Of a stretch of 45,536 nucleotides of DNA, positions 278-41,630 are shown one piece after another; the first letter of the stretch is position 1; every line of letters begins with the position of its first letter. The DNA lies in the sequence record NC_073058.1. The stretch is one strand, 5' to 3'. This DNA is from Escherichia phage vB_EcoS_WFI. Under the pieces are notes generated by a model. The model saw only the letters and a program-made list of their open reading frames with translations. It searched no databases and was not told the origin of the DNA. The position numbers and the translations under genes were made by a program.

Positions 278-583
278 ATGAGAGCATTAATCTGGAAATA
301 CTCACGGGCCATAGCGAAGCTGGACGAAGCGAAAAACACAAACGGCAACGTAGACTATGCGCGCCAGTTTGCGGCACGGGCACACCAACACATCATGAGT
401 GCGCTCGACGATATGGACGCCAGCATGGATGACCTGGGTCCGCTGCGTAAGGCTATCCATGAATACGCGCTGGCATTCTCCCGTGAGCGCCTGGCCTATC
501 GCTTCGGTATTGGCGATAAGGCAGTGACAAACGTTGCCCGGATTAAAGCCCAGCGTGAGCTATTCGCCCAGCTTGCGAAATAA
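278..583 (+). CDS. hypothetical protein (101 aa)
   Basis: ORF track; tight spacing with flanking genes. Confidence 0.55.
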   Translation: MRALIWKYSRAIAKLDEAKNTNGNVDYARQFAARAHQHIMSALDDMDASMDDLGPLRKAIHEYALAFSRERLAYRFGIGDKAVTNVARIKAQRELFAQLAK

Positions 584-592
584 GAGGCCAAA

Positions 593-862
593 ATGACCCG
601 TAGACGCGCAAAACAGCTTTCGTGGCATATCCCCCTGCATTGCATACGAATATGGGCTAAGAATGCGAATGAGGGCGATTCAGTGTTCTGGTGCTATCGC
701 GACGACGTTAAGCCGTTGACGCAGACTCGCTACTTGCACCAGTTCGCAGCACAACACGATTTCAGGGTGCGGACTTCCTTGCAACCAATGGGGATCCGTA
801 TTACATTACGCCGGAAGCCCGCCGTTGAGCGGGTAGGCAAACACTGGAGACTGAGCAAATGA
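593..862 (+). CDS. hypothetical protein (89 aa), member of a tandem paralog set
   Basis: RBS AAGAGG before ATG 593; C-terminus ERVGKHWRLSK resembles C-terminus of the next gene; ATGA overlap with next gene. Confidence 0.5.
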   Translation: MTRRRAKQLSWHIPLHCIRIWAKNANEGDSVFWCYRDDVKPLTQTRYLHQFAAQHDFRVRTSLQPMGIRITLRRKPAVERVGKHWRLSK

Positions 863-1203: not shown

Positions 1204-1832
1204 AATTACTATTCCGCCGTAACTCAGATGGCTATATCCTGAAGCCGATCCAGACCTTATCGAACTGGGTACGCCTCCACCACGTTGCAAGCGATAAAGT
1301 CTGGTGGGCGACTAAGGCAAAGCTGCCGGAGTACTACGAAATCCTCACACACGATATCGAGCGCGGCGATGTGCTGCGGGATATTCGCGACGGGCAATTG
1401 TGGGTCGTGGAATACACCTACCGGCACGGCCTGCGTATGACGTCCCGCAAGGATGGCGTAGCGGGCAACATGGTCAAGGGCATGACGTACTTCGGGCTAA
1501 TCAACTACGAACGAGTGGGCCGCAAGTACAGCAAGCGTGACCGCCAGCCACATGAGCGAGCGAACGCCATAGCTGACGTCGTCAACCGCGTAACGCGTGA
1601 GGTGGCGCAGAAGATGAGCGTTGAGTTCCGCAAATCCCAGCCAGCGTATGCGACCTACGACGCCCGCCAGGTGCAGGCCAGACTTAACAAGGCCACGCAT
1701 GAGATAATTAATCACGTTGATGCCGTGACGAATGCGCAGCGCATGGCCCGCGAATACGGCGTAGGATTCATCCGTGTCGAGCAAGACGGCAGCATGTCCG
1801 CTATAGACCCGCGCTCGGTAATACTGAAATGA
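1200..1832 (+). CDS. hypothetical protein (210 aa), N-terminal domain paralogous to 859..1203
   Basis: Motifs ERGDVLRDIRDGQLWVV and GLINYERVGRK align with the upstream gene; translationally coupled. Confidence 0.6.
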   Translation: MKLLFRRNSDGYILKPIQTLSNWVRLHHVASDKVWWATKAKLPEYYEILTHDIERGDVLRDIRDGQLWVVEYTYRHGLRMTSRKDGVAGNMVKGMTYFGLINYERVGRKYSKRDRQPHERANAIADVVNRVTREVAQKMSVEFRKSQPAYATYDARQVQARLNKATHEIINHVDAVTNAQRMAREYGVGFIRVEQDGSMSAIDPRSVILK

Positions 1833-1953
1833 GCGCGACTATCCGTGATATGCTTATGCATAACCGCTTTGAGATAGGCGGGCGAGTATTCTGCAATTAC
1901 TTCGTGGCGCGTGCTTGGGCGCGCCATATCGGAAAACCAGTAGGGGCAATACG

Positions 1954-2241
1954 ATGCTATACGATTTGATATTTTGGTTTGGTTTGGGGTGTGCGTCACT
2001 CTTTGTTGTGGTGCTGGCGCTGTTGGTATGGCTATTCCTGGTATGGCCCGCGGTGGAAGCAGCCAGCATTACCCGCATGACGTTCAAGATATACAAGCGC
2101 CGCGGCATATCGGAACACCCGACCAGGTTGCGCATGTGGTGGCTTTGGTATCTGGATATGATTGGCGGTCGAAGGTTTGAGGCCATCCGGTCATCCGGGT
2201 GGGAATGGAAAGGCGTCGGCAAGTGGTCCATTTTCGATTAA
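1954..2241 (+). CDS. small membrane protein (95 aa)
   Basis: ATG 1954 with GGGG 8 nt upstream; hydrophobic N-terminal segments (LIFWFGLGCASLFVVVLALLVWLFLVW); sits just before the lysis cassette. Confidence 0.45.
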   Translation: MLYDLIFWFGLGCASLFVVVLALLVWLFLVWPAVEAASITRMTFKIYKRRGISEHPTRLRMWWLWYLDMIGGRRFEAIRSSGWEWKGVGKWSIFD

Positions 2242-2260
2242 ATATGCAGTCGTGATATAG

Positions 2261-2293
2261 TCCCAGTGAGCTAAAACTTACTGGGACTTTTTT
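2261..2293 (+). terminator. stem-loop plus T-run abutting the holin start codon
   Basis: TCCCAGTGAG/CTTACTGGGA stem followed by CTTTTTT, then ATG at 2294. Confidence 0.45.
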
Positions 2294-2584
2294 ATGGATA
2301 AGCTAAACGAGTGGTTATTCGCCCTCGCGTGTCTTGCAGGTGGCTTCGTTGGCGCTCGCATTCACGGTGAGGCAACGAAAGGGCCGCTAAATTTTGTGTT
2401 GTTTATCGTGGTCGGCTTCTTGTGCGCCGTGTTTGGGGCACCAGCTATTGCCGAGTGGTTTAATCTAACCGGACCGAGAACTGTCGCCGGTCTTGGCTTC
2501 GTAACGGCAATCTTCTGGATGCCGGTCGCCGCCAGAATCCGTGAAGCAATTTCCTCGTTCCGTCTGCCGGGGAATGCAAAATGA
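2294..2584 (+). CDS. holin-like membrane protein (96 aa, about 3 TM segments)
   Basis: Three hydrophobic helices; immediately upstream of a second small membrane protein and the endolysin; ATGA overlap. Confidence 0.55.
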   Translation: MDKLNEWLFALACLAGGFVGARIHGEATKGPLNFVLFIVVGFLCAVFGAPAIAEWFNLTGPRTVAGLGFVTAIFWMPVAARIREAISSFRLPGNAK

Positions 2585-2820
2585 TTATCGCCATCCTGTT
2601 ATTAGTGATCGGGGCTTCGTCGCTGTATAACGTATACGCGCCATCCGTCCAGGATGGCATTTGCGGACGGGTGCTCTACCTGCTTACAGCAATGACCTGT
2701 ATTATTGGCCTGATGCAAACGGGGGACGTATCGAATACAGTCTGGTCCGTGCTAATCTGGCTATTCGCATTACGCACACTGCGTAATGCTGTTTTAAATG
2801 GGGTAAAACATGCGATTTAG
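2581..2820 (+). CDS. holin or antiholin-like membrane protein (79 aa, 2 TM segments)
   Basis: Two hydrophobic helices; overlaps the endolysin start. Confidence 0.5.
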   Translation: MIIAILLLVIGASSLYNVYAPSVQDGICGRVLYLLTAMTCIIGLMQTGDVSNTVWSVLIWLFALRTLRNAVLNGVKHAI

Positions 2821-3301
2821 TGACAACGGTCTAAGATTTACGGCAGCGTGGGAGTCGTTCAGCCCAGTGCCGTATTTCGCGACTAAGAAGGAGCAGGCCC
2901 GCGGCTTGTACACCTGGGGCTACGGTCATACTGGCACTAATCCGCCACAGAGCATTACCCGCGCGGAAGCGCTGGAGCTACTCAAGCGTGATGTGGCGTA
3001 TGCCGAGAACTGGGTGAACAAGTACGCACACCCGAGCATCAATCAGGCGCAATTCGACGCGCTGGTGGATCTGGTAATCAATGCCGGTCAAGGTCCGATC
3101 GTACCGGATAACATTGCCAATGACTTCGATGACGCGGTGCGCCTGGGTGATTGGGCCAAAGTCCGTGCTACGCTGCCGCAGTTCCGCAAGCAAGGCGGTG
3201 AAGTGCTCAAGGGCCTGGTACGTCGTGCAATCGGCAGACAGGCGCTATTCGATGGTAAGCAGTGGGACGTTGCCGAGAAAATCGGTCGTAACGCGGCATA
3301 A
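2810..3301 (+). CDS. endolysin, GH24 phage lysozyme-like
   Basis: Motif E...YTWGYGHTG typical of T4/lambda-type lysozymes; 163 aa; follows holin candidates. Confidence 0.75.
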   Translation: MRFSDNGLRFTAAWESFSPVPYFATKKEQARGLYTWGYGHTGTNPPQSITRAEALELLKRDVAYAENWVNKYAHPSINQAQFDALVDLVINAGQGPIVPDNIANDFDDAVRLGDWAKVRATLPQFRKQGGEVLKGLVRRAIGRQALFDGKQWDVAEKIGRNAA

Positions 3302-3317
3302 TAAGAGGAAACACAGT

Positions 3318-3731
3318 ATGTTAAAAAGTATTCTTGATCATAACGCCGACGCGCTCGCCGCGCTGGCTAAAACCGAAGACCCCGGCGCACGCGCTATTAT
3401 TGCGGACACTATCAGCCATGCGGGCGTCTTTGACGCGAAGCTGCCTAGCGTGCCGGAAAGTAAGCCGGTGGCAAGTGCGACCATAACCATCACACCGGAA
3501 TCCGCCGCAGTTGGTGCGAAGGCCACCGCTTCGGTTGAGGTCCAGCCACCCGACGCGACTAACAAGGCAGGGAAGTGGGTGTCGTCGAATCCCGCCTGCG
3601 CGGCAATCGATCAGACTACCGGCGAAATCACAGCCCAAACGGCGGGTAGCGCCCACATCTTTTGGGTGGCCTCCGATGGTAGCGGGGCGATGGCGTCCGC
3701 CATCTTCACCGTAACGGGGGCGGAAGAATAA
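3318..3731 (+). CDS. Ig-like (Big_2-type) domain protein, 137 aa
   Basis: ATG 3318 with RBS AAGAGGAAA; C-terminal half Ala/Thr/Ser/Val-rich, resembling bacterial Ig-like domains; the 3081 start in the ORF track was rejected. Confidence 0.55.
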   Translation: MLKSILDHNADALAALAKTEDPGARAIIADTISHAGVFDAKLPSVPESKPVASATITITPESAAVGAKATASVEVQPPDATNKAGKWVSSNPACAAIDQTTGEITAQTAGSAHIFWVASDGSGAMASAIFTVTGAEE

Positions 3732-3737
3732 AACCAC

Positions 3738-3764
3738 AAGCCCGGTTAATTCCGGGCTTTTTAT
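3738..3764 (+). terminator. rho-independent terminator
   Basis: AAGCCCGGTTAATTCCGGGCTT hairpin followed by TTTT. Confidence 0.6.
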
Positions 3765-3828
3765 TGCTTGACTTGCAACCAACATAAGGGCCATACTGCA
3801 ACCAATCAACGAGAAGGAGTAACACACT

Positions 3829-3909
3829 ATGACACGCAATGATATTTATGTACTGGCAATCTGGTCCGCCGCCGCATTCATCGGTATGGTTATTTGCGAA
3901 TTGCTATAG
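3829..3909 (+). CDS. possible 26-aa hydrophobic peptide
   Basis: Strong RBS GAAGGAG 9 nt upstream of ATG; MTRNDIYVLAIWSAAAFIGMVICELL; not in the ORF track because of size. Confidence 0.3.
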   Translation: MTRNDIYVLAIWSAAAFIGMVICELL

Positions 3910-3970
3910 CCCGCCGCCATAAGGACCGTGGTATATTGTCCCCGGACCCATAATCAGGAAGTAAATTAAT

Positions 3971-5113
3971 ATGCACCCTCAAACTAAAATTACCGACGAG
4001 CAATTGATCGCTGAATTGCAATCTGGCACTACCTCGAAAGATATTGCGAAGAAATACGGCATTGCCCTTCGAAATGTCTATATGCGCAAAGCCCGCCTGT
4101 CGAAGAAAGGCATTGGACACGGCAACGATGCTGTAATCCGCAAGCGCGTTGCCGATGGCTTCGGCGTTAAGCGTGTATCAGCCCTGGTGCGCGGCAATGG
4201 CGAAGAGGTCATGTCCTGGGTCATCACCGAGCAGGACAAGGAGCGCCAACTTGAAGCAATGCGCGCCGTTGTCGAGGGTATGAACAGCGAAATCACACCG
4301 GCAGCACCAGTGAGCGCTCCGCCAGTCCCGATCCAGGCGCTTGACCTGCTTAACCTGTATACCGTGTCGGACTTCCACCTGGGAATGTTGGCATGGGGCG
4401 AGGAGACTGGCGAAGACTGGGATATGGCAATCGCCGAAGACCTTTTCTACCGCTGGTTTGTCGAAGCCTTCGCCCGCGCGCCGGACGCTGGCACTGCCGT
4501 AATCAATATCCTCGGTGATATGGCCCACTTTGACAGCCTCGACGCCGTCACGCCAGCCAGTGGTCACGTACTGGACGCAGATACCCGCTACCAGAAACTG
4601 GTCCGCTACATGATTCGCATGGTGCGCAACGTGGTTGAACTGGCGCTGCAAAAACACCATAAGGTCAAACTGTTAATCGTCCAGGGTAATCATGATGAGT
4701 CCGGTATGATTTGGCTGGCTGAGATGTTCAATACCCTGTACGAGAACGAGCCGCGCGTTGATGTGGACACGTCCCCGGACGTTTACAAAATGGTGCAGCA
4801 CGGTAAAACAACGCTGTTCTTCCACCACGGACACAAAGCACGCTTTGACGCCATCGAACCGGTCATGATTTCTAAATTCAGACAGGCTTTCGGGTCCAGT
4901 GAGTACAGCTACGCGCACGTGGGCCACTTGCACCACCAGAAGATTGTTGAATCCCGCAACATGATTGTTGAACAGCACCGGACCCTTGCCGCGAAAGACG
5001 CATATGCGAGCCGCGGCGGTTGGATGTCTGGTCGTAGTGCTAACGTCATCACCTATAGCGCCAACTACGGCGAAGTAGCGCGCTTAACCATTAGCCCGGA
5101 AATGTTGAAATGA
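3971..5113 (+). CDS. calcineurin-like metallophosphoesterase with N-terminal HTH-like domain
   Basis: Phosphoesterase motif series DFHLG, GDMAHFD, QGNHDE, FHHGHK, HVGHLHH; N-terminal SKDIAKKYGIALRNVYMRKARL resembles an HTH. Confidence 0.6.
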   Translation: MHPQTKITDEQLIAELQSGTTSKDIAKKYGIALRNVYMRKARLSKKGIGHGNDAVIRKRVADGFGVKRVSALVRGNGEEVMSWVITEQDKERQLEAMRAVVEGMNSEITPAAPVSAPPVPIQALDLLNLYTVSDFHLGMLAWGEETGEDWDMAIAEDLFYRWFVEAFARAPDAGTAVINILGDMAHFDSLDAVTPASGHVLDADTRYQKLVRYMIRMVRNVVELALQKHHKVKLLIVQGNHDESGMIWLAEMFNTLYENEPRVDVDTSPDVYKMVQHGKTTLFFHHGHKARFDAIEPVMISKFRQAFGSSEYSYAHVGHLHHQKIVESRNMIVEQHRTLAAKDAYASRGGWMSGRSANVITYSANYGEVARLTISPEMLK

Positions 5114-5322
5114 TTAGACAAGTATTCATGAGCACGCAGGCCACCCGCCTGAAAGAGCTTCGCAAACAGCTTGAAGGCTTGCGCCGATTCGAACGAACGG
5201 CAGCGGCAATAGGCATGTCTATCAGTGAGCGGATCGAGATACTATCGCAGATACGCTACACAGAAGGCGCTATAAGCGAAGTAGAAAGCATGTTGACCAG
5301 ATACTACGGTCGTGCCGTTTAA
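5110..5322 (+). CDS. hypothetical protein (70 aa)
   Basis: ATGA overlap with upstream gene; followed by a terminator. Confidence 0.4.
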   Translation: MIRQVFMSTQATRLKELRKQLEGLRRFERTAAAIGMSISERIEILSQIRYTEGAISEVESMLTRYYGRAV

Positions 5323-5328
5323 CCCTCC

Positions 5329-5356
5329 CAGCCCGCCGATTTGGTGGGCTTTTTTG
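5329..5356 (+). terminator. rho-independent terminator upstream of the terminase genes
   Basis: CCAGCCCGCC-GATTT-GGTGGGCT stem followed by TTTTTT. Confidence 0.45.
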
Positions 5357-5439
5357 TGCCTGTTATAATCCCCCTTAGATGGCTGGGCCGTCTCCTATGT
5401 TGCCGATGGTCGGCGCATATGCATAAAAGGGCTTATATC

Positions 5440-5991
5440 ATGGCAGAAATCAAAGTTAAGGGCCGTCGTGCCAAACTGGACGGACGAGTAGCAGTTACCC
5501 CGCGCCGTAAACCAGGCGAGCAAACAGAACACACCAATCTTGGACCAGAGATCGAATACGGCAAGCGTCGTAAAGGCGGCAAATGCGGACGCCCGACCGA
5601 CTACCGCACCGTGTATTGTGACCAGCTTCGTCGCTATTTCGCCGATGCCGTAGCCTGGCAGATCAACTACTCCGACAAGGGCGCTGCGCAAGTCATCCCT
5701 CGAAACATGATGCCGACTCTCGGTCGATTCGCTGCAAATATTGGTGTAGGCATCGCCTGCCTGTATCGCTGGGCGCGCGCACATGAGGAGTTCGCCGAAG
5801 CGATGGCGGACGCTATGGAGTTGCAGAAAACTTTCCTGATGGAAGCTGGCGGCGTGACCATCGCGGCGGGCTTCGCTACGTTCCTGCTTAAAGCCAACCA
5901 CGGCATTCGTGACGATGCGCCGCTGGATGACGACGAAGATGATAACGGCGACGTCGTTGTGGAACCTACCGGCAAAGGCCAGGGTGAGTAA
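5440..5991 (+). CDS. terminase small subunit (putative)
   Basis: Directly upstream of and overlapping TerL (ATGA at 5991); basic N-terminus, acidic C-terminus; start at 5440 chosen over 5341 or 5419. Confidence 0.55.
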   Translation: MAEIKVKGRRAKLDGRVAVTPRRKPGEQTEHTNLGPEIEYGKRRKGGKCGRPTDYRTVYCDQLRRYFADAVAWQINYSDKGAAQVIPRNMMPTLGRFAANIGVGIACLYRWARAHEEFAEAMADAMELQKTFLMEAGGVTIAAGFATFLLKANHGIRDDAPLDDDEDDNGDVVVEPTGKGQGE

Positions 5992-7376
5992 TGCGTAACT
6001 ATGCGGCAGAACACCGCGCACTTGAACGCGCGATCGCAAAGCGCAACCGACCGCCACGCCCTACGCGCGTTGCGCAGGCCGTCCGCCTGTATCAGCCTGA
6101 TTGCCTTCCGCACCAGGTAGAACTGCTGCGCGACACGAAGACTAAAATCCTCGGCCTTTGCTCCGGCTTCGGTGGCGGAAAGTCGTGGGTAGCGGCGCGT
6201 AAGGTCATCCAGCTTCTCACACTTAACCCCGGTCATGATGGCATCGTTACAGAACCGACTATTCCACTCCTGGTTAAAATCATGTACCCGGAGCTTGAGA
6301 AGGCATTCGACGAGGCTGGATTCCGGTGGAAGTTCAACAAGCAAGACAAGATTTATAGCGTGCTGGTGAAAGGCAAATGGACCCGCGTTATTTGTGAGTC
6401 AATGGAGAACTACACCCGCCTGATCGGGGTTAACGCCGCGTGGATTGTTGCCGATGAGTTCGACACCACTAAGCAAGACGTCGCTATGGCGGCATATCAC
6501 AAATTGCTTGGTCGTCTGCGTGCGGGCCTGGTGCGCCAGTTCGTCATCGTATCCACGCCTGAAGGCTTCCGGGCGATGTACCAGATTTTCGAAGTGGAGA
6601 AGGATAGCCAGAAACGTTTGATCAGGGCGAAGACTACCGATAATCACCACTTACCGGCAGACTTTATCGACACGCTGCGGAGCCAGTACCCGGCAAACCT
6701 GATTGATGCATACCTGAACGGCCTGTTTGTCAACCTTACGTCTGGCGCGGTCTACAAGATGTTTAACCGCGAAGAGAACGCCAGCACCGAGGAAGTGCAA
6801 CCGGATGATACGCTGATTATCGGTATGGACTTTAACGTAACGAAAATGGCGGCGGTTGTGTACGTCAGACGGCAGCACACTACCGAGAACAAGGAGTTCC
6901 GCGACGAGATTCACGCAGTGGATGAATTCGTGGACCTGTTTGATACCCCGGCTATGATTGAGGCGATCGAGGAGCGCTACCCCGATCATTGTGCTGCCGG
7001 TCGGGTCGTCGTTTACCCGGATAGCAGTGGCAAGTCTCGAAAGACTGTTAACGCATCGTCGTCCGATATCGCGCAACTGGAAGACGCTGGCTTCGAGGTG
7101 GAGTATGACAGCGTCAACCCGCCTGTAAAAGACAGATTGATCGCGATGAATACGATGATGTGCAACTCGAAGGGCGTGCGCCAGTATTTTGTCAACATGG
7201 ATAAATGCCCTACACTAGCGAAATGTCTGGAACAGCAGGTTTATGACCTGAAGAAAGGCGAGCCGGATAAAACCGCCGGTGTGGACCACATGAACGATGC
7301 CGCGGGCTATCCAATTGCGCACCTGTTCCCAGTGATTCGTCCTATCGCCGTTGTTCCAACTGTTGACTTCTACTAA
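5991..7376 (+). CDS. terminase large subunit
   Basis: Walker A-like GLCSGFGGGKS and Walker B IVADEFD; 461 aa; position between TerS and portal. Confidence 0.85.
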   Translation: MRNYAAEHRALERAIAKRNRPPRPTRVAQAVRLYQPDCLPHQVELLRDTKTKILGLCSGFGGGKSWVAARKVIQLLTLNPGHDGIVTEPTIPLLVKIMYPELEKAFDEAGFRWKFNKQDKIYSVLVKGKWTRVICESMENYTRLIGVNAAWIVADEFDTTKQDVAMAAYHKLLGRLRAGLVRQFVIVSTPEGFRAMYQIFEVEKDSQKRLIRAKTTDNHHLPADFIDTLRSQYPANLIDAYLNGLFVNLTSGAVYKMFNREENASTEEVQPDDTLIIGMDFNVTKMAAVVYVRRQHTTENKEFRDEIHAVDEFVDLFDTPAMIEAIEERYPDHCAAGRVVVYPDSSGKSRKTVNASSSDIAQLEDAGFEVEYDSVNPPVKDRLIAMNTMMCNSKGVRQYFVNMDKCPTLAKCLEQQVYDLKKGEPDKTAGVDHMNDAAGYPIAHLFPVIRPIAVVPTVDFY

Positions 7377-7386
7377 GGAAACGACC

Positions 7387-8907
7387 ATGACCGTTAACGT
7401 TGACAACCAACACCCACTCTATGCGCGCATCGCGCAAGAGTGGAAAATGATCCGGGATTGCGTAGCAGGGGAGCGCGCCGTGAAGGCGTGCGGCCCCTTA
7501 TACCTGCCACACCCAGCCAGTGGCGACAATACCGACCAGAAAGCACGGGCGCGATATAAGGCGTATAAGCAACGTGCTGTATTCCTGAACGCCACCGCAC
7601 GTACACTTAACGCGCTGTTAGGCGTTGCCTTCGCTAAGCCGGTTAGTGTGGATCTTACCGGGGCGATGGCTGACCTGATTGATGACGTAGACGGCAGCGG
7701 GATGCCCCTGGCGCAACTCCTGCGCGGTGCTATGTCGGAAGTGCTGCAATCGGGCCGCGCTGGCTTTATGGTGGACTACGACCGCCAGGCTAACTTTGAT
7801 GAACTGGGTAACGTAGTGCCGCAGACCGCCGCCGAGATGGCGACACACCGCCCGCTTATCCGCCTGTATACGGCAGAACAGATCATCAACTGGCGGCAGA
7901 CTCACGGCGTCGATACGCTAATCGTGCTGAAGGAAACGGACGAAATCAGCACCGAAGACCCGGACGACTTCGCAAACCACGAAGTAACGATCTGGACCGA
8001 GCTTCGCATGGTTGACGGCAAGGCGCACGCCCGTCGCTGGTTTTACAACGCGGACACGTCCGAGGTGCAAATGGACTTGCCGCGCGGATTCACCCGCACC
8101 GACCTTGTACCGCTGGTGGATGCTGCCGGTCGTGCGCTTACTCAACTGCCATTTTGCTGGTGTGGTGCAGTGGACAACAACGCCACGCCGGACGCCGCGC
8201 CGCTGGCGGATATTGCATCCATCAACATTAAGCACTACAACGCTGAGGCGGACGTCGCCGAGATTGCGCACATCGTGGGCCAGCCTACCCTGGTTGCCAC
8301 GGGCTTGACTCAATCATGGGCCGACAAAAACCTGAAGGGTGGCATCGCTCTCGGTGCGACTAAGGGCGTTATCCTGGGCCAGAACATGGACGCTAAACTG
8401 ATTCAGGCCGAGGAGCGCAACTTGTCTGTTGCACTTTGTGAGCGCCGCGAATTGCAGATGGCTAAACTGGGCGCGGCCCTGGTTGAGAAGGGGACCGCAC
8501 CGAAGACGGCAACCGAAGCGGCCTACGATGCGCAGACTGATAACAGTATCTTGTCGCTCATTGCCGGTAACGTTGAGAAGGCTTTCAACCGTGCGCTGCA
8601 AATCGTCCAGCTATTCACCGGTGACACCGCAGTGCAGCAAGTCACGTTGAACAAGTTCTACACCGAAATCACGGTTGACGCGCAGCTTATGACCGCAATG
8701 ATGTCAGGTGTGCAGACTGGCACGGTCCGACTGGCTGACTTTATCAAGTGGATGATGGCGCAGGGCGTTATCGACGACTCGCAAACCGTCGAGCAGGTGG
8801 AAGACGAATTGCGAAATCAGAATCCATTGCCTCAAATGTCCCCTGATGCGGTAGAATCTACCGAAGAAGACCCGGACAAGGTAACGGACAATGGCGAGAA
8901 CAATTAA
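7387..8907 (+). CDS. portal protein
   Basis: About 506 aa ORF immediately after TerL and before the MuF-like gene; start 7387 with RBS AAGGAAACGACC. Confidence 0.75.
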   Translation: MTVNVDNQHPLYARIAQEWKMIRDCVAGERAVKACGPLYLPHPASGDNTDQKARARYKAYKQRAVFLNATARTLNALLGVAFAKPVSVDLTGAMADLIDDVDGSGMPLAQLLRGAMSEVLQSGRAGFMVDYDRQANFDELGNVVPQTAAEMATHRPLIRLYTAEQIINWRQTHGVDTLIVLKETDEISTEDPDDFANHEVTIWTELRMVDGKAHARRWFYNADTSEVQMDLPRGFTRTDLVPLVDAAGRALTQLPFCWCGAVDNNATPDAAPLADIASINIKHYNAEADVAEIAHIVGQPTLVATGLTQSWADKNLKGGIALGATKGVILGQNMDAKLIQAEERNLSVALCERRELQMAKLGAALVEKGTAPKTATEAAYDAQTDNSILSLIAGNVEKAFNRALQIVQLFTGDTAVQQVTLNKFYTEITVDAQLMTAMMSGVQTGTVRLADFIKWMMAQGVIDDSQTVEQVEDELRNQNPLPQMSPDAVESTEEDPDKVTDNGENN

Positions 8908-9994
8908 TCAACATATGGCGGATCGTATGATTCGCCGTCACATCTTCACCCAGCGCCTGAGCAATGACCAGGCGCGAAGGGTGCTGACTATGTGGGAGAA
9001 GTTCCGGCCCACGTTACTTGGTAAGCTGACCGAGTTACTTGATGGCAAAAAGTCCATGAATAACAAGGCACTGACCACACTGTTAACGCAAATCGACAAG
9101 ACCGTCAAAACGGAACTGCGCACCGAGTTTAAGGCGCTGGCTGAAAGCCTTCAGGAGTTCGCCGACACGGAGGCTGATTATCTTGCCGATACATTAACGG
9201 CAGCGATCCAGCCAGCGGTCGCCGTACCGGCTGTTGAGGTTGTTGGCGTAGTGACTGGCGCGCAGATCGCAGCGACGGCTATGAAAAACCCATTCCAGGG
9301 TAACACCATGATGCAATGGCCCGATTCACTTTCGGAGTGGACCAGGACGCAGATCGGTAATCAGGTGCGCGCTGGATTCATCCAGGGCAAGCCGACTATG
9401 GAAATTATCGCGGACGTAAGGCGCGCTCTCGGCGGTCGTAGTGCGCAGGCAATCTCAAGCGTTGTTAAGTCCGCAGTAAACCACTATGCGGCGACCGCCC
9501 GCGAATTAATGGTAAAAGCTAATGACGATATTCTCGAAGGTCGCCAATGGTTGGCTACATTGGATACGCATACTTCTCCCATGTGCCAGCTACGCGATCG
9601 CCTGTTTTATCCAGTTGATGTTACTCCCGACACCAAAGGAAAGCGCGGCGGGAAAGTGGTGGCTGGGTCACAATATGGCGCTGGTCCGGGCAAGCTGCAT
9701 TATTGCTGCCGGTCTACGGAGACGTGGAAAGTCAAAGGCATGGAAGATTGGCCCAGTGGTAAGCGTCCGGCACTGAAGGCTGACGCGGGTCGATTGCTGA
9801 GTGAGCAGGTCGACGCGCAGACTGATTTCTTCTCATGGGTGCAGCGCCAGCCGCGCCATATTCTGGAGGAATTATATGGGGTGCAGCGCGCAGACCAGAT
9901 TATGCGCGGCGTGAAAGTGCCGAATATGTTCACCGATACTGGCGAACTAATGACTATCGCACAGCTTAAAAACCGGGGGTTATGGCGTGATTAA
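8891..9994 (+). CDS. head morphogenesis protein (MuF / SPP1 gp7-like)
   Basis: Motif WLATLDTHTSPMCQLRDRLFYPVD typical of the MuF-like family; follows portal. Confidence 0.7.
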   Translation: MARTINQHMADRMIRRHIFTQRLSNDQARRVLTMWEKFRPTLLGKLTELLDGKKSMNNKALTTLLTQIDKTVKTELRTEFKALAESLQEFADTEADYLADTLTAAIQPAVAVPAVEVVGVVTGAQIAATAMKNPFQGNTMMQWPDSLSEWTRTQIGNQVRAGFIQGKPTMEIIADVRRALGGRSAQAISSVVKSAVNHYAATARELMVKANDDILEGRQWLATLDTHTSPMCQLRDRLFYPVDVTPDTKGKRGGKVVAGSQYGAGPGKLHYCCRSTETWKVKGMEDWPSGKRPALKADAGRLLSEQVDAQTDFFSWVQRQPRHILEELYGVQRADQIMRGVKVPNMFTDTGELMTIAQLKNRGLWRD

Positions 9995-10295
9995 ATATGC
10001 AGCGATTGGACTGGTTATCGGTCTGGCGGTTGGATTCTGGCAGGGTGATTCCTACCGCACTGGCGTTGTGGCGAAAGCGGCGCAAGAAGCGCAAGCCGAA
10101 GCCCAACGGCAGCAAACTAAGGTTGTTGAGGGGTCGGTGAAGGCTGAGCAAGCCCGCGACGTGGAATACCGGACTATCACGAAAGAGGTTGTAAAATATG
10201 TTACGCGTCCTAACCGTCCTGATTGTAGTTTTGATGCTGAGCGCGTGCGGATCAAGCAAAGCGCCATCGACGCCGCTAACCGAGTCGGTCTATAG
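9987..10295 (+). CDS. i-spanin (Rz-like)
   Basis: N-terminal TM helix (IKYAAIGLVIGLAVGFW) followed by charged coiled-coil region; o-spanin gene overlaps in another frame. Confidence 0.65.
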   Translation: MIKYAAIGLVIGLAVGFWQGDSYRTGVVAKAAQEAQAEAQRQQTKVVEGSVKAEQARDVEYRTITKEVVKYVTRPNRPDCSFDAERVRIKQSAIDAANRVGL

Positions 10296-10428
10296 ACCGC
10301 CTTGCACCTTTGAGAATGCCTCGGCAGATCCAGACGAGGACTTGCTTGTTGATGTTAAAAATATGGAATGCGGGGCTAAGCTGAGGGCGCAAGTGCTGGA
10401 GTTGCAGAAAATAATTCGGGGGCCGTAA
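10198..10428 (+). CDS. o-spanin (Rz1-like lipoprotein)
   Basis: Signal peptide with lipobox LSAC, Pro-rich mature part; starts inside the i-spanin gene in a different frame. Confidence 0.65.
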   Translation: MLRVLTVLIVVLMLSACGSSKAPSTPLTESVYRPPCTFENASADPDEDLLVDVKNMECGAKLRAQVLELQKIIRGP

Positions 10429-10442
10429 TGGCCCCCTTTTTG
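10418..10442. terminator. bidirectional terminator between convergent genes
   Basis: GGGGGCCGTAATGGCCCCC hairpin followed by TTTTTG; the o-spanin stop lies in the loop. Confidence 0.6.
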
Positions 10443-11207
10443 TTAGCGCGGAATACCGCAAATCTCGTTTAACGTCTTCACGTCCAGCGCTACTGCCGTT
10501 GACTTCGGCTTGTCCGGGTATGGAATGAACTGTTCAACTTCAGGCCACGCCGCGATCAGCTTCTTGTCAGTATTGTGCATATCCAGCACGCCGGTAACAG
10601 TTAGTTTGAACGCGTCATACTTCGCACGCAATTCACGGCGGGCCTTGTCGTTGCGGTCCAGGCGCTTGCAGAAATCATGATCTGCCGGGTAGTCTACGCG
10701 ACCGCGCGGGAGATATATCGGCAGCGCGGCCCCGTTCTCGTCCACTTCACACACTGACGCGAGCATAACTTCCTCGTACCCCGGTACTATATCGCTGAGA
10801 TCCGGCGCGAGCGTATTCATATATTTCTCTTCCCAGTATCCGCGGTGCTGGCGGTAGCGGTATCCGTCGCCGCTCATATGCAGGGTACGGATGTTACCGC
10901 CTGCGTTGATTTCGAAAGTGGAGCAGTAAACGCGTCCAATGCCTTTCGTCCGGTCCTTGTTATAGCTGTACGACGCTTTATCGGTGTAAACGCTGACGCC
11001 GTACATCTGCGACTGGTTATCGCTGATTTCTGCGATATATGCGCGTAGCTCGGCGAACGTGTGAATGCCTTTTGGCATACAGTGCAACGTAATGTCATAC
11101 GCCAGGTCGCGAGAGTCCATCATGATTTTTTTGGCTTCAGTCGCGATTTCGTGGTCGCGCAGGATGTTAGCCAGAATCTGGTTTTTAATGTCTTTTGTCA
11201 GTCTCAT
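10443..11207 (-). CDS. hypothetical protein (254 aa), opposite-strand gene inside the head module
   Basis: ATG at 11207 with RBS GAGGA; two ATTGGTTGCAC motifs and TATATT just upstream; no recognisable motifs. Confidence 0.6.
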   Translation of the reverse strand: MRLTKDIKNQILANILRDHEIATEAKKIMMDSRDLAYDITLHCMPKGIHTFAELRAYIAEISDNQSQMYGVSVYTDKASYSYNKDRTKGIGRVYCSTFEINAGGNIRTLHMSGDGYRYRQHRGYWEEKYMNTLAPDLSDIVPGYEEVMLASVCEVDENGAALPIYLPRGRVDYPADHDFCKRLDRNDKARRELRAKYDAFKLTVTGVLDMHNTDKKLIAAWPEVEQFIPYPDKPKSTAVALDVKTLNEICGIPR

Positions 11208-11356
11208 TTGTGTGTCCTCATTGTTGGTGTGCAACCAATATAGTGCAACCAATACCTGGATTGCAAGCGAATTTTGCGATTATTTTTATCGCTGATAATA
11301 TTAGAGGCGTGAAGTCGAGCGGGTGGCCCGCTCTGCCACAATCCCAGGGGGATAGC

Positions 11357-26073: not shown

Positions 26074-26097
26074 AAGGGGCCATCCGGCCCCTTTTTT
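26074..26097. terminator. terminator between convergent genes
   Basis: AAGGGGCCATCCGGCCCCTT hairpin followed by TTTTTT. Confidence 0.6.
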
Positions 26098-27061
26098 AAT
26101 AGATATTAGGAATGACGAGTAACGGGGTGGGTACGGCAATATTTTTGCCCGGCATTTGGAATTGCTGCCGTGAGTAGTTGCCAATGACGCGGTTTTTGGC
26201 GATGCGCACATTATTACCCGCCATTCGTATCCCGTTCATGCGCACATGGTTGTATCCGCTGTTGTTCTCAATGAGCGCACCGGTATATGAAAGCTGGATC
26301 AGACTATTACCGATGTGCTGGTCGCCGCCACCGATATGAATCGTGCGGTCGTAGACAAACGGCTTGTTTACCGTCGAGAACGTGACCTGCCCCTGGTTGT
26401 TAGTCATGGTGATACCGGTCCCCGGTGAGGGCGGCGTATTGTTGAATATTACCAGGTCCATATCAACGGCAGCGCCTACGTCGTCAATCCCGCCATAGGA
26501 CGCATTACGGACGATAATACTTCCGCCATCGAAGCCAACCGATACGTTGCCGTCGTCCCAGCGCGCGAACGGGACACCGCCGACTGGTAGCGGCATACTT
26601 CCGTCTACCCGCACACGCTGCGCATATCGGCAGGTCATTAGCCGTGCTACGTTGGATATGGCGGTGAAGTCTGTAGAGTTAGCTACCAGAATCCCCGCAT
26701 TGCGTGACCCCACCGGCAGCACTTCCATAATCACCCCGCCCCATGTTGGAAGCCCGCTGTATGCGTTATAGGCGTCCTCACCGCGCAAGGTGATCCCGCC
26801 ATCCCCGTTACGTTGTATCGACGTCACATAAAACGGGTCTGGCAAGACCAGGGTCTGGTCGAATACTTCCATCACTTCTACCGGATTAGTTAGGGCAACG
26901 ACCAGTTCGGACCCTGGAGTCAGCGGTGTGTTAATGGTCAGCGTCTTGTCAGACTGACAGCGCTGATTAAAGGTAGTGCAAAACGACGGAGCGCGAAGGC
27001 CCGCGGTTATCTCCATGACAGGTCTACCGTCGTTGTAGTCGATAAGTATTCCAGCGCCCAT
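26096..27061 (-). CDS. hypothetical Gly/Asn-rich beta-type protein (321 aa), opposite strand
   Basis: ATG at 27061, 2 nt after the stop of the upstream lipoprotein gene; Gly/Asn/Val/Thr-rich composition (my guess: beta-rich); no recognised motif. Confidence 0.5.
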   Translation of the reverse strand: MGAGILIDYNDGRPVMEITAGLRAPSFCTTFNQRCQSDKTLTINTPLTPGSELVVALTNPVEVMEVFDQTLVLPDPFYVTSIQRNGDGGITLRGEDAYNAYSGLPTWGGVIMEVLPVGSRNAGILVANSTDFTAISNVARLMTCRYAQRVRVDGSMPLPVGGVPFARWDDGNVSVGFDGGSIIVRNASYGGIDDVGAAVDMDLVIFNNTPPSPGTGITMTNNQGQVTFSTVNKPFVYDRTIHIGGGDQHIGNSLIQLSYTGALIENNSGYNHVRMNGIRMAGNNVRIAKNRVIGNYSRQQFQMPGKNIAVPTPLLVIPNIY

Positions 27062-27063
27062 TA

Positions 27064-27285
27064 TTACCACTCCCGCGATTTAACTGATACTGTACCTGAG
27101 AAATTGCCGTCGCTATCGGCAGATAGGCCAGTGAAGCGCATGTCCACGTCTCCGGCAGGGACTTTCTGCCCGTCAACGTAACGCAACATGCAGCTTCCGT
27201 AAGCCACCGTAATGCAATCACCGTTGTTGCGTTCTACAGCACAACCGGACAAAAGAACAGCACAAATCATAATTAAAGTTTTCAT
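27064..27285 (-). CDS. small lipoprotein, Cor-like superinfection-exclusion candidate
   Basis: RBS AGGAGA before ATG; signal peptide with lipobox LLSGC; Cys-rich 73-aa product; location next to tail-fiber genes as for cor genes in T1/phi80-type phages. Confidence 0.45.
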   Translation of the reverse strand: MKTLIMICAVLLSGCAVERNNGDCITVAYGSCMLRYVDGQKVPAGDVDMRFTGLSADSDGNFSGTVSVKSREW

Positions 27286-27365
27286 GTTATCATCTCCTAT
27301 ATTTGGTTGAGTTTTAGTATTACACCGCTCGATCAAGAATGCAACCAATTTATGAGGATTCAGCT

Positions 27366-29408
27366 ATGGCAGCGGGTACACTATCCGTAACGAATAACAG
27401 CACCGCGGTGACTGGAGACGGCACAACGCTTACCGCGCTGAAGGCGGGCGACTTCCTGTCGCTGGTAGTAGGGCAAGTCCCTTACACTATTGCTATTGCA
27501 TCCATTGAGAGCGACACCGCGCTTACACTGGCGCTGCCGTTCGATGGCCCAACGGCAACCGGCCTCGCATGGGATAGCGTGGCGCGCGATACCATGTCCC
27601 TAGCAACGATGGGTGTAACCGTCCAGGCGCAGAAAGCACTACGCTTGATGATCGCGGATGAAAACAACTGGCGTGCAATCTTCGGCGACGCTGAAGAAGT
27701 CACGGTAACGCTGCCGAACGGGCAAGTTATGCAGGGAATGTCATGGGGCTACCTGTCATCCTTGTTAAAGGAAGTAGACCCCGTCGAAATGCGCGACCTG
27801 CAACAACAAGCCGCCGCATCGGAAGCCGCCGCGCTGGTGTCACGCAATGAGGCCGAAGGCTTCAAGAACGATGCCAATACCATCAAGACGCAGACCGACC
27901 AAATCAAGGCTGACACGCAGGCAATCCACGACGCCACCAATACGATCAAGACGCAGACCGACCAGATTAAGACCGATACGCAGGCTATCAAGGACCAGAC
28001 CAACCAGATTAAGACTGATACTGGCGTTATTCGCGATGAAGCCAATACTGCGAAGACTGACGCGCAAGCCGCCAGCACTGCCGCGCAGGGATTTCGCGAT
28101 CAGGCCGAAGAATGGGCGCAAAGCGTAAACGCGGATAATCTGCTAACTAAATCAGGAAACCTGGCAGGCGTTGCCGATGTGCAGACGTCGCGAACCAACC
28201 TCGAACTGGGGGAGGGTAACGAGCCGATTTTCAAGGGCGCCCTTGCTGTTAAATCGGCCCCCGACACCGTATCGGCACAGGGCGGAATGTTCCAGTCTAA
28301 GCTGCGGAATAGCGACGGCGACGATGTGGTTACAACGCAAAGCTACGCGGAAACACAACTTGGGGTCGGAAAGCACACGATCGGCGTAATCACGCCTTCG
28401 GGGGCACATTACTATCAACTCGACGTCGAAGGTAACTTTAACGGATTCAAGCGCCTGTCATCCGCGGCGGGTGGCGAAGTTCTCCTAAACGGCGTCGATA
28501 GTAACACCGTGCAGCTACTGTCGCTTAACCCACCAAAGCCGAACGACTACACCGGATTCACGCGGTATAACTGGCAAAATAGCGCGGTGTTTACCGGGCC
28601 GATTCGTCAGGGAGGGACGGGGCTTGAAGCCTATGAGGTCTACGTCCTGAATGCTGGCGTGGCGGAATGGCGCTACCGGTTTAGACCCGATGGAAAGATG
28701 TCCGCCAGACGACTTATCGCCGAAGGTTTCCAGACCGGCTGGGACCAGCCTAACAACTACGGGGACAGCGGTGTGTGGCTATCTGACGTCGGAAATAACG
28801 ACGGCGGCTGGGTTCCTGCAATCTCCTGGCGGTCCCAATCAACCGGCGGTTACCCTATCCGCGCCACGTGGGGGCTTATCTCTCAGGGCGCGGCGAACTG
28901 GCCCCGTGCGGCATTGCGATGCCGAGGGGATGGCGAAAACTGGACAAACTTCGAGTTCGTCGTTAACAGTTGCGATATCCAGGTCAGCGGTACATTCGGC
29001 GCGTACACGTTCTCCAAAGCGCCTACGTCCGACCGAGACCTGAAGCACGATATTAAGTACACGGAAGGGAAAGAAAGCTACGATCGCGTGATGCAGTGGC
29101 TTCCCACAATGTTTAAGTATAAAGGGTCGGAAATCCAGCGCTACGGCCTTATCGCGCAGGACCTGGTGAAAATCGATCCGCAATACGTGAAGATTATTCC
29201 AGGCGCACTTAAAAACCCGGACCTCGTAGGGGCTGAAGGATTCAAAGCCGAAGACGGCGACTACTACGACGACACGCTGGCACTTGACAGCAACGTCATG
29301 TTAACAGATATGGCGTGCGCGATGGTCTTCATGGGGCGTAAAGTGGAAGATATGCAGAAAGAACTGGAGGAATTGAAAGCTGCCGTAGCGGCACTGACCA
29401 AAGCATAA
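27366..29408 (+). CDS. tail fiber protein with C-terminal S74-type intramolecular chaperone domain
   Basis: N-terminal conserved domain; 21-aa tandem repeats TIKTQTDQIK(A/T)DTQAI; C-terminal motif TSDRDLKHDIKY...GLIAQDLVKIDPQYV typical of autocleaving chaperone domains. Confidence 0.75.
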   Translation: MAAGTLSVTNNSTAVTGDGTTLTALKAGDFLSLVVGQVPYTIAIASIESDTALTLALPFDGPTATGLAWDSVARDTMSLATMGVTVQAQKALRLMIADENNWRAIFGDAEEVTVTLPNGQVMQGMSWGYLSSLLKEVDPVEMRDLQQQAAASEAAALVSRNEAEGFKNDANTIKTQTDQIKADTQAIHDATNTIKTQTDQIKTDTQAIKDQTNQIKTDTGVIRDEANTAKTDAQAASTAAQGFRDQAEEWAQSVNADNLLTKSGNLAGVADVQTSRTNLELGEGNEPIFKGALAVKSAPDTVSAQGGMFQSKLRNSDGDDVVTTQSYAETQLGVGKHTIGVITPSGAHYYQLDVEGNFNGFKRLSSAAGGEVLLNGVDSNTVQLLSLNPPKPNDYTGFTRYNWQNSAVFTGPIRQGGTGLEAYEVYVLNAGVAEWRYRFRPDGKMSARRLIAEGFQTGWDQPNNYGDSGVWLSDVGNNDGGWVPAISWRSQSTGGYPIRATWGLISQGAANWPRAALRCRGDGENWTNFEFVVNSCDIQVSGTFGAYTFSKAPTSDRDLKHDIKYTEGKESYDRVMQWLPTMFKYKGSEIQRYGLIAQDLVKIDPQYVKIIPGALKNPDLVGAEGFKAEDGDYYDDTLALDSNVMLTDMACAMVFMGRKVEDMQKELEELKAAVAALTKA

Positions 29409-39593: not shown

Positions 39594-41016
39594 TACTTAA
39601 GTCCTCATCAGTAGCTTCAGACCACGCAGGGCGCGGGTCGTCGATTGGTGCCAATACCGGTTTAGCCGGTGCGCGCGTGATTTTATCACACAATTTCGCC
39701 CACACTTTCGGTTTCTCGTCCTTCAATACCTTCTCGGCATCGGTAGGACTGAGCAATGTTTCTTTGTACATTACATCGCGCTTGATCCGGGCCTTCGTGA
39801 AGATTTCAATCACTTCGCTCTCATCCGCCCACTTGCGATTACCTTCCTTACCGGCAACCATCTTGAGGCCCAGCGATTCGCCATCACCCGCCATCACCGC
39901 CTTGAATACTGCGGACTCGATAGCCTTGATGTGCTGACGCATTGCGTCGAGGCCTTCGTATGCATTACGCAGTTCCGCCGCGCTCATAGCGCCATTGGAT
40001 TCTTCCTTATAGCCGCGCTTCGCACGTCGTGCCGCTTTCCGGGCTTCGCGGGCTGTATTGCGGTCGTGGTTGGCGCATTCTTCTTCTGTCGCCACGCTCA
40101 CGTCGTCCGCCAGGTCGTCGTCTGTTGCCGTTGGTGGGGTCATCGTGTCGATGGCGGCCTTAGCGCGGGCACTACACTGATCCGCAAATCGGCACCACTG
40201 ACAGGCGTCAACGCTCGGTCGGAAGTCGGCACGGGTAAGTCCCTTCTTGCCTCGGGAATACGCGTCCAGTGCCGCGACCGCTCGCTTGGACGCAAACTTA
40301 GCGAATATCTCCAGCGCTTCCACTGTAATATCCCACTCCGACGCCCCGCCGCAATACGGCTGGAAGATTACCAGGCGAACGGTCGTAATGTCGTACATGG
40401 TTTGCAGCTTGCGCAGCAGGCCCAGCGCGTACAACATAAGCTGTTTGTTTTCTTTCGCCTCGACCTTATGTCGCCCGGTCTTCAGGTCGCCAACAATAAG
40501 CATGTACGTGCCGTCGGTCTTCTTCATGACCATGACCATATCGGCAGTGCCAAACGTCTTCACCCTGTTGCCGTCTATCTCGAAGCCAGGGTGCAAGATG
40601 CGGGTGAGATCGGCGCGCATTTCAAGCTGGACAAACTCCGCCACTTCAAGGAGCGGTCGCCAGTGGTCGATGTACGCGTCACACTGTTTCACCATATCGT
40701 CGTTGACCAGTACGCCGCCTTTCGGTGCTTTCGGGTGCGCCTTTACCGGCCCCTTACCTTCGTTCTCAACGTAACACCCTTTGTACGTCTTCGCGGATAG
40801 CTTCTTCTCTCCGGCAATGATGCGGTTTAGCACGACTTCTGATACGGTGTGCATACTCGTACCGTTAATCGCAGCTTGCCCGGATTCGTTCGGGATACCT
40901 TTTTCGACTACCAGGGCGGCGGGGCACCCCATCCATTTTTTAGATCCCGATGGCCCGAGTAATGAGTGTTCGGTATTGCTACCGGATTGCGTTTTGCGCT
41001 TTGGTTTAATAGCCAT
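39586..41016 (-). CDS. Cas4/RecB-like PD-(D/E)xK exonuclease
   Basis: 476 aa; C-terminal Cys cluster CQWCRFADQC; co-located with SSB-like gene and polymerase. Confidence 0.55.
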   Translation of the reverse strand: MAIKPKRKTQSGSNTEHSLLGPSGSKKWMGCPAALVVEKGIPNESGQAAINGTSMHTVSEVVLNRIIAGEKKLSAKTYKGCYVENEGKGPVKAHPKAPKGGVLVNDDMVKQCDAYIDHWRPLLEVAEFVQLEMRADLTRILHPGFEIDGNRVKTFGTADMVMVMKKTDGTYMLIVGDLKTGRHKVEAKENKQLMLYALGLLRKLQTMYDITTVRLVIFQPYCGGASEWDITVEALEIFAKFASKRAVAALDAYSRGKKGLTRADFRPSVDACQWCRFADQCSARAKAAIDTMTPPTATDDDLADDVSVATEEECANHDRNTAREARKAARRAKRGYKEESNGAMSAAELRNAYEGLDAMRQHIKAIESAVFKAVMAGDGESLGLKMVAGKEGNRKWADESEVIEIFTKARIKRDVMYKETLLSPTDAEKVLKDEKPKVWAKLCDKITRAPAKPVLAPIDDPRPAWSEATDEDLSNE

Positions 41017-41201
41017 TATTCCACCCTTGTAAACTGGACAATTACATATTTACAGATATTAGCCATTCCCGCCTGTTCGACACGGCGGTGCACTTCATGC
41101 TGCGCATCTATCCAGCACATCGAGGCGTCATGGTTAACAACCATAAAAGAGAAGTGGTCGTTTGTTTTGTGGCAAGTTGCCAGCACGAAGAATTTAGCCA
41201 T
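41016..41201 (-). CDS. hypothetical protein (61 aa)
   Basis: ATG 41201 with RBS GGGAGA. Confidence 0.35.
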   Translation of the reverse strand: MAKFFVLATCHKTNDHFSFMVVNHDASMCWIDAQHEVHRRVEQAGMANICKYVIVQFTRVE

Positions 41202-41452: not shown

Positions 41453-41462
41453 TGTCTCGTCC

Positions 41463-41494
41463 TCTAAAAATAGGCCCGCAGATTAGCGGGCCGG
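41463..41494 (-). terminator. rho-independent terminator (minus strand)
   Basis: GGCCCGCTAATCTGCGGGCC hairpin followed by TATTTTT on minus strand. Confidence 0.45.
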
Positions 41495-41500
41495 ATAATA

Positions 41501-41626: not shown

Positions 41627-41630
41627 TATA

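Follow-up and report, generated by a model that had tools for sequence, protein, structure and literature searches.

The locus at 9987-10428 of the coliphage vB_EcoS_WFI raised the question whether two small overlapping reading frames, situated 3′ of a MuF-like head gene, encode an inner-membrane and an outer-membrane spanin (i-spanin and o-spanin), and whether the lysis genes of this phage are split between two places. The stretch of DNA analysed (the window, 45,536 nucleotides) was found to be a Dhillonvirus (HK578-like) coliphage genome. The plus strand from 278 to 10428 was found to contain small genes followed by two holin candidates, a lysozyme, a Big_2 protein, a phosphoesterase, a small ORF, terS, terL, the portal gene, the MuF-like gene and the two putative spanin ORFs (Table 1). 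The MuF-like gene was assigned by its PHROG match, its Pfam Phage_Mu_F match being sub-threshold (E 0.17).

The region 8800-11300 was compared with a phage collection by megablast, and the best match was vB_EcoS-22664B1 (MZ234008), with 99.9% identity over the whole query. A total of 156 records were matched, nearly all of them Dhillonvirus (HK578-like siphoviruses) of Escherichia, and at least 80% of this 2.5-kb query, which spans the pair, was covered in 135 of them.

Table 1. Coordinates of the predicted spanin genes and of the features discussed with them
Feature	Coordinates	Strand	Description
Hairpin	2259-2288		just 5′ of holin candidate 1; z -7.7
Holin candidate 1	2294..2584	+	96 aa; about three hydrophobic segments; phrog_2359 holin, 1.5e-32
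Holin or antiholin candidate 2	2581..2820	+	79 aa; 2-3 hydrophobic segments; phrog_2508 holin, 1.4e-24
Endolysin (soluble lysozyme)	2810..3301	+	PF00959 Phage_lysozyme, 1.5e-21; phrog_7 endolysin, 8.1e-36
Big_2-domain protein, soluble	3318..3731	+	directly 3′ of endolysin; without TMD, without lipobox
Terminator-like hairpin	3738..3759	+	closes holin-endolysin-Big_2 unit; -15 kcal/mol, z -3.5
Phosphoesterase gene	3971..5113	+	
Terminator-like hairpin	5330..5350	+	just 5′ of terS; -15.2 kcal/mol, z -3.1
MuF-like head morphogenesis gene	8891..9994	+	phrog_241 head morphogenesis, 2.3e-115
Predicted i-spanin gene	9987..10295	+	GTG start; 102 aa
Predicted o-spanin gene	10198..10428	+	ATG start; 76 aa; +1 frame relative to i-spanin
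GC-rich hairpin and T-run	10418..10436	both	overlaps o-spanin stop codon; adjoins convergent nmad5
nmad5 gene	10443..11252	-	convergent with the predicted spanin pair; followed on the map by scaffold and major capsid genes

Signals in the two overlapping reading frames

The GTG start of the predicted i-spanin gene was found to overlap the end of the MuF-like gene (stop codon at 9992-9994) by 8 nt and was preceded, 7 nt to its 5′ side, by a GGGGG run (9975-9979). The product contained a single hydrophobic segment at the N-terminal residues 1-18 (MIKYAAIGLVIGLAVGFW, mean KD 1.95) with no second window in the hydropathy profile; a transmembrane helix was predicted at about residues 4-19, and Lys3 precedes the hydrophobic segment. 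This N-terminal transmembrane feature was found to be kept in 8 Dhillonvirus sequences as well as in Jersey and K1G. The only cysteine was C80. The protein matched phrog_2536 'Rz-like spanin' (5.7e-34) and Jersey_09 (35% identity, E 7e-15, BLASTP), homologues were found by tblastn in 609 phage records, and the motif KYVTRP..C.F..ERV.IK was common to WFI, Jersey and K1G. A single-sequence AF2 model of low confidence (mean pLDDT 57) contained helices at 5-72 and 84-99 with the Cys80-bearing loop at 73-83 between them; a like arrangement has been predicted in print for the 'EP23 to SO-1' subfamily, and the model serves as a weak consistency check. The 102-aa orthologue of phage EE09 (CDS34), to which the WFI protein is 93% identical, has been detected by mass spectrometry in filtered lysate through one peptide with 12% coverage (PMC10673088).

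The ATG start of the predicted o-spanin gene was preceded by AAGAGG at 10183-10188, 9 nt to its 5′ side. The gene was found to overlap the i-frame by 98 nt and to run 133 nt past the i-frame stop, which places it in the 'overlapped' class. The N-terminus, MLRVLTVLIVVLMLSAC followed by GSS, contained a basic residue, a hydrophobic core and the lipobox LSAC with Cys17, followed by the presence of Gly at +2, where no Asp (the inner-membrane retention residue) was found. The lipobox Cys was conserved in all relatives examined. Further cysteines were present at Cys36 and Cys58, together with six prolines. The protein matched phrog_5672 (1.2e-25) and phrog_1267 (2.5e-12), both 'Rz-like spanin', was 100% identical to a PaulFeyerabend ORF annotated as o-spanin, and shared 42% identity with the putative spanin Jersey_10 (E 3e-17, BLASTP). 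Homologues were found by tblastn in 641 phage records, and a PPC motif and a D-x-DEDL..DV.N.EC motif were kept from WFI to Jersey and K1G. A unimolecular spanin of the T1 gp11 type was rejected for this product because the hydropathy profile contained no C-terminal hydrophobic segment.

Neither protein matched the lambda Rz (Phage_lysis) or Rz1 families in Pfam at E <= 1, where both gave nothing beyond chance-level hits to LptM and unrelated DUFs. Assignment of the pair to the sequence families of lambda Rz and Rz1 was therefore rejected. Among the Dhillonvirus members sampled, the pair was 88-100% identical to that of WFI except in LM40P1, which contained a divergent o-spanin (67%). The C-terminus of the i-spanin was found to vary within the genus, the protein being of 102 aa (as in WFI) or 109 aa, and the overlap lengthens accordingly from 98 to 119 nt. 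The cysteines C80, C36 and C58 were conserved from WFI to Jersey and K1G. Most tblastn homologues of the pair came from phages of Salmonella and Escherichia; records of Dhillonvirus, Jerseyvirus and Kagunavirus were among them.

Position of the pair and transcription context

The endolysin was found to contain no N-terminal hydrophobic or SAR segment in the hydropathy profile. The product of the Big_2 gene that follows has neither a TMD nor a lipobox, which leaves the endolysin with no further spanin candidate next to it. From the endolysin stop (3301) to the i-frame start (9987) the distance was 6.7 kb with nine genes between, and a contiguous lambda-type holin-endolysin-spanin cassette was rejected on account of this distance, the intervening genes and the Big_2 gene placed after the endolysin. 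The original prediction had located the holin candidates and endolysin at 2.3-3.3 kb, an overlapping i-spanin/o-spanin pair at 9987-10428 after the MuF-like head gene and a gap of about 7 kb between the two groups. All of this was upheld: the phrog and Pfam matches identify the three genes of the first group, both frames of the pair have exactly these ends and carry the signals, PHROG matches, conservation and annotated orthologues expected of them, and the gene order includes no spanin beside the endolysin.

A scan of the whole window for lipoboxes returned three further ORFs, at 27064..27285 (minus strand), 27749..28045 (minus strand) and 40817..41032 (plus strand). The second and third lie inside longer ORFs of the opposite strand and were taken for probable antisense or shadow frames. 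The first is a small lipoprotein ORF beside the tail-fibre locus, and it was rejected as a u-spanin because a C-terminal TMD was absent. No candidate for a u-spanin or another outer-membrane disruptor was seen near the endolysin.

The hairpin at the o-spanin stop codon was found to fold with -18.5 kcal/mol (z -2.7) on the plus strand and -17.3 kcal/mol (z -3.1) on the minus strand. Its stem was kept in the 8 Dhillonvirus sequences, with variable stem length and loop, and a terminator has been annotated (ARNOLD) at the counterpart position in PTXU06. It was picked out by a terminator scan on both strands and is likely a bidirectional intrinsic terminator shared with nmad5. Two of the three other hairpins (2259-2288, 3738-3759 and 5330-5350) were also annotated in PTXU06, among them the equivalent of 3738..3759, annotated as a terminator. 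The hairpins at 5330..5350 and 10418-10436 bracket a block of terS, terL, portal, MuF-like and spanin genes. This gene layout and the predicted terminators suggest that the putative spanin genes are the distal cistrons of that block and are separate from the holin-endolysin unit. The late co-expression of the spanins with structural genes, which had also been proposed, is plausible, because the pair shares its strand with terS-terL-portal-MuF, is coupled start to stop with the MuF-like gene and has a predicted terminator 3′ of it. No transcriptome data for Dhillonvirus were found in a literature search, and the single mass-spectrometry peptide of the EE09 i-spanin orthologue was the sole sign of expression that came to light. 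It is rather unlikely, though conceivable, that the spanins are a co-inherited part of the packaging/head operon, coupled in translation to MuF and closed by a terminator of their own, with their dosage set by the head genes and not by the holin-endolysin unit, or else a remnant of an ancestral lysis cassette 3′ of portal and MuF, as in pYD38-A, from which the holin-endolysin genes would later have moved 5′ of the terminase.

Function of the pair and the alternative readings

The two ORFs are very probably the genes of a two-component spanin that belongs to the Jersey family, in its short HK578/EP23-type subfamily. This call was made because of the signal features, the family matches, the conservation and the annotation of orthologues. 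No complementation, knockout or localisation tests of Jersey-family spanins were found in the literature on the family, so the predicted function rests on signals and homology.

The coding character of the two frames was assessed in the 8 Dhillonvirus sequences, which were 75-100% identical over the region and aligned without gaps. The part read only in the i-frame contained 43 of 71 variable sites at the third codon position of that frame, and the part read only in the o-frame contained 31 of 49 at the third position of its own. Counted in the proper frame, synonymous changes outnumbered non-synonymous ones (442:239 for i, 305:177 for o), while the wrong frame gave the opposite (65:618 and 18:474). 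Purifying selection acts on each ORF in its respective frame. Conservation in these sequences extended to the GTG start, the two Shine-Dalgarno motifs, the lipobox Cys and all periplasmic cysteines. The chance that one or both ORFs are accidental open frames and not genes is next to nil, even though several GenBank records annotate just one of the two or neither, and MZ234008 has a 47-aa ORF of another frame annotated where the i-spanin should be. The frame-specific third-position bias in each ORF effectively refutes such an accident; the conservation across genera with signals intact, the proper spacing of the Shine-Dalgarno motifs and the peptide obtained from the EE09 orthologue also speak against it. 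An ORF with an N-terminal TMD paired with an out-of-frame lipobox ORF was found a single time in the window when every start codon on both strands was considered, and neither such a pairing nor any lipobox ORF turned up in 40 random sequences drawn from a first-order Markov model of equal composition.

The location between the MuF-like and scaffold genes could be taken to mean that the two small proteins belong to the virion or serve head assembly rather than lysis, and the authors of the EE09 study did guess from gene position that CDS34 is structural (PMC10673088). The endolysin (CDS41) was present in that lysate too, and being found there is therefore no sign of association with the virion. 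A membrane anchor and a lipoprotein signal are signals of the cell envelope, not of the capsid, and the spanin PHROG matches were strong for both proteins. Distant, weakly similar i-spanin homologues adjoin a lysozyme gene in Klebsiella phage 2 LV-2017 and endolysin and holin genes in Vibrio phage pYD38-A, and the window contained no other spanin candidate; a role in the head is very improbable against this evidence. Superinfection exclusion is an activity of some phage lipoproteins, Cor and Llp among them. With these as precedents, and with a second lipoprotein ORF present in the window (27064..27285, minus strand), the pair could instead have an accessory task in the envelope, for example excluding superinfecting phages or masking a receptor, the outer membrane being breached otherwise. 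Phages without spanins are among those treated in the spanin survey (PMC6139136), which also favours this alternative. An accessory role is nevertheless hardly credible, because the exclusion-type lipoprotein candidate lies elsewhere, beside the tail-fibre locus, because an overlapping TMD protein and lipoprotein with conserved periplasmic cysteines are the signature of a two-component spanin, because homologues adjoin endolysins in other phages, and because the surroundings of the endolysin offered no candidate, u-spanin or otherwise, for disrupting the outer membrane.

On the preferred reading as a two-component spanin, the N-terminal helix of the 102-aa product would hold it in the inner membrane in type II orientation, with a mainly helical domain extending into the periplasm. 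The 76-aa product would be exported, receive its lipid at Cys17 and be delivered to the outer membrane's inner leaflet, a destination expected because Gly rather than Asp occupies the +2 position. The periplasmic C-terminal parts of both proteins would bind each other, with C80, C36 and C58 forming intermolecular disulfides, and the complex would cross the periplasm through the peptidoglycan mesh. After triggering by the holin(s) of 2294-2820 and degradation of the wall by the lysozyme of 2810-3301, the freed complexes would fuse both membranes and complete the lysis. We infer this topology, complex formation, disulfide bonding, membrane fusion and timing from lambda Rz/Rz1-type spanins.

The signal-peptide and transmembrane check that had been proposed for the pair came out in favour of the spanin call, with an N-terminal TMD in the i-spanin, and with the LSAC lipobox and its Cys17 in the o-spanin. 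The suggestion that the arrangement would be a useful marker for comparing relatives found little support. All Dhillonvirus loci examined have the pair at one and the same position, which is shared by Jersey and K1G of two neighbouring genera, so that it can do little to resolve members of the genus. The value of the result lies mainly in the quality of annotation. In many GenBank records of Dhillonvirus, one or both genes are absent or labelled 'hypothetical', the closest record (MZ234008) has a spurious out-of-frame ORF called instead of the i-spanin, and gene position led the EE09 proteomics paper to take the i-spanin for a probable structural protein (PMC10673088). For phage engineering (lysis-deficient or lysis-timing variants for therapy), deletion of the holin-endolysin block leaves the spanins behind. 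No new biological question is opened, because split lysis genes have long been known from T4 and others.

Comparison with known systems

The pair is already annotated and described in the genus and in its relatives, and it is a known and ordinary one. The BASEL phages Oekolampad (Bas18) and KarlBarth were found to contain ORFs of identical length at the identical position, annotated as i-spanin and o-spanin in an annotation that used the spanin database. HK578, JL1, SSL-2009a, EK99P-1, EP23 and SO-1 have been placed in both the Jersey i-spanin and the Jersey o-spanin families (Kongari et al. 2018, PMC6139136). The Jersey family consists of overlapped two-component spanins, and its shorter subfamily, 'EP23 to SO-1', is described with two helices and a linker (PMC6139136). 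The o-spanins of the family contain two constant cysteines at Jersey positions 45 and 67 (Kongari 2018, PMC6139136), with which C36 and C58 of the WFI protein were found to align. The WFI pair is homologous to this subfamily, likewise overlapped and equipped with the same o-spanin cysteines, and no difference of substance was found.

The phages Jersey and K1G (Guernseyvirinae) were found to contain their spanin genes (7501-7996 in Jersey, 4663-5158 in K1G) between the MuF-like head morphogenesis and scaffold genes, as in WFI, so that the proposed synteny comparison turned out positive. The holin and lysin of Jersey lie at 41182-42221, just 5′ of terS on the circular map, again as in WFI. The spanins of Jersey and K1G are longer than those of WFI (128 and 87 aa), and the Jersey overlap is longer, of 155 bp. 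Unlike WFI, these phages have MuF and the spanins separated by one or two additional genes and lack a reverse-strand nmad5 between the spanins and the scaffold gene. The split was also visible in gene numbering in the Jerseyvirus SeF1, which contained the same four PHROGs with spanins Gp_009/010 and holins Gp_063/064, and in the Dhillonvirus vB_EcoS_P78, which contained holins 0031/0032, endolysin 0033 and spanin 0040. Judged from these gene orders, the layout is an inherited one, common to Dhillonvirus, Jerseyvirus and Kagunavirus.

A distant i-spanin homologue was found directly after the lysozyme gene in the lambdoid Klebsiella phage 2 LV-2017. Vibrio phage pYD38-A contained a contiguous endolysin-holin-spanin cassette 3′ of its portal and head morphogenesis genes. 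The similarity of such distant i-spanin homologues is weak (E 5e-5 over half of the protein). The comparison fits a history in which the spanin family can be linked to the endolysin and the split of Dhillonvirus and Guernseyvirinae would be a derived but old state.

The E. coli siphophage Schulenberg was stated in 2019 to have its spanins apart from holin and endolysin (PMC6763661); its published description likens it to Guernseyvirinae phages, not to Dhillonvirus, and its resemblance to WFI is one of description. In phage T4, the spanin genes pseT.3/pseT.2 are distant from both the holin gene (t) and the endolysin gene (e) and provide a precedent (PMC6139136), whereas the T4 spanins differ from those of WFI in their 'separated' architecture, in their unrelated sequence family and in the scattering of all the lysis genes. 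The Rz/Rz1 pair of lambda resembles the WFI pair in functional class and logic: a type II inner-membrane protein is combined with an outer-membrane lipoprotein read in the +1 frame, periplasmic cysteines are present and the o-spanin contains proline, whereas the WFI pair has no sequence-family match to it, is overlapped and not fully embedded, and lies apart from the holin and endolysin genes.

Variation and annotation of the spanin pair in Dhillonvirus

Within the genus, the i-spanin was found in two lengths, 102 aa or 109 aa, with the C-terminus as the polymorphic part. The i-spanin of the window, Oekolampad and KarlBarth was found to contain 102 aa with the C-terminal end ...ANRVGL, and that of LM40P1 was likewise of 102 aa but with the divergent end ...ANGISN, whereas the i-spanin of TH13, UAE_MI-01, PTXU06 and Kenya-K19 was found to contain 109 aa with the C-terminal end ...ANGVGTATAVQVR. 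Because the i-spanin C-terminus differs, the overlap with the o-spanin was 98 nt for the 102-aa form (window) and 119 nt for the 109-aa form. The matching N-terminal part of the mature o-spanin was found to co-vary with the i-spanin end (SSKAPSTP versus SSNVPLMP).

The pair was variably annotated in the records of relatives. In MZ234008, the nearest GenBank record, the i-spanin was unannotated and a 47-aa ORF was called in another frame. Only the o-spanin was annotated in PTXU06 and only the i-spanin in EE09, each as 'hypothetical protein'; the i-spanin orthologue of EE09 (CDS34) was regarded as a likely structural protein in the proteomics paper (PMC10673088).

Coordinates of the features (in the window unless another locus is named)
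Feature	Position	Strand	Details
Terminator-like hairpin	2259..2288	+	12 bp + T-run; -24.5 kcal/mol, z -7.7
Big_2 Ig-like domain protein	3318..3731	+	137 aa; directly 3' of endolysin
Calcineurin-like phosphoesterase / 'DNA repair exonuclease'	3971..5113	+	380 aa; phrog_704, 5.9e-161
Out-of-frame ORF called by MZ234008	9997..10140; 9552..9695 of L001 (MZ234008)	+	47 aa; GenBank annotation
109-aa i-spanin form	290..619 of relatives' loci L006, L007, L008, L010		Counterpart of window 9987..10295
nmad5 gene	10443..11252	-	Nmad5 protein, PF18757 7.8e-56
Small lipoprotein ORF	27064..27285	-	73 aa; lipobox LSGC, Cys15; phrog_4281
Flanking genes of lipoprotein ORF	26096..27070; 27339..29408	-; +	
Endolysin-holin-Rz-like spanin cassette	3203..4234 of L013 (Vibrio phage pYD38-A)		Contiguous

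Genes bordering the spanin pair and a second lipoprotein

The o-spanin and nmad5 genes were found to face each other and to share a hairpin at 10418-10436. Dhillonvirus has been reported to escape the Tmn defence system with single missense mutations in nmad5 (PMC11846954), and the nmad5 interval of some relatives contained an additional inserted 'DNA polymerase III beta subunit' gene.

A second small lipoprotein ORF of the window was found with a tail-fibre gene on one side and, on the other, a moron (phrog_1265) for a 'membrane protein' of 324 aa; it was rejected as a spanin. It contained a weak match to the Cor superinfection-exclusion protein covering the signal peptide, and its product may act in receptor masking or exclusion.

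The holin-endolysin unit and the lysis cassette of Vibrio phage pYD38-A

The very stable hairpin was located 6 nt 5' of the first holin start, and a terminator was annotated at the equivalent site of PTXU06. No sigma-70-like promoter was found in the search between the hairpin and the first holin start; if the hairpin terminates efficiently, the unit would need its own promoter or antitermination. The hairpin-bounded unit was found to include the Big_2 gene, the EE09 orthologue of which (CDS40) was detected by MS in lysate and infected cells (PMC10673088); MZ234008 contained just a 55-aa N-terminal version (gp57-like). The phosphoesterase gene, placed after the lysis unit and before terS, was also found in EE09 and PTXU06, whereas MZ234008, otherwise nearly identical to the window, contained two unrelated ORFs in its place. 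This locus is a mosaic exchange point.

In Vibrio phage pYD38-A, the lysis cassette was found 3' of the portal and head-morphogenesis genes, with a spanin weakly resembling the i-spanin of the window, and this arrangement may hint at the original site of the lysis cassette.
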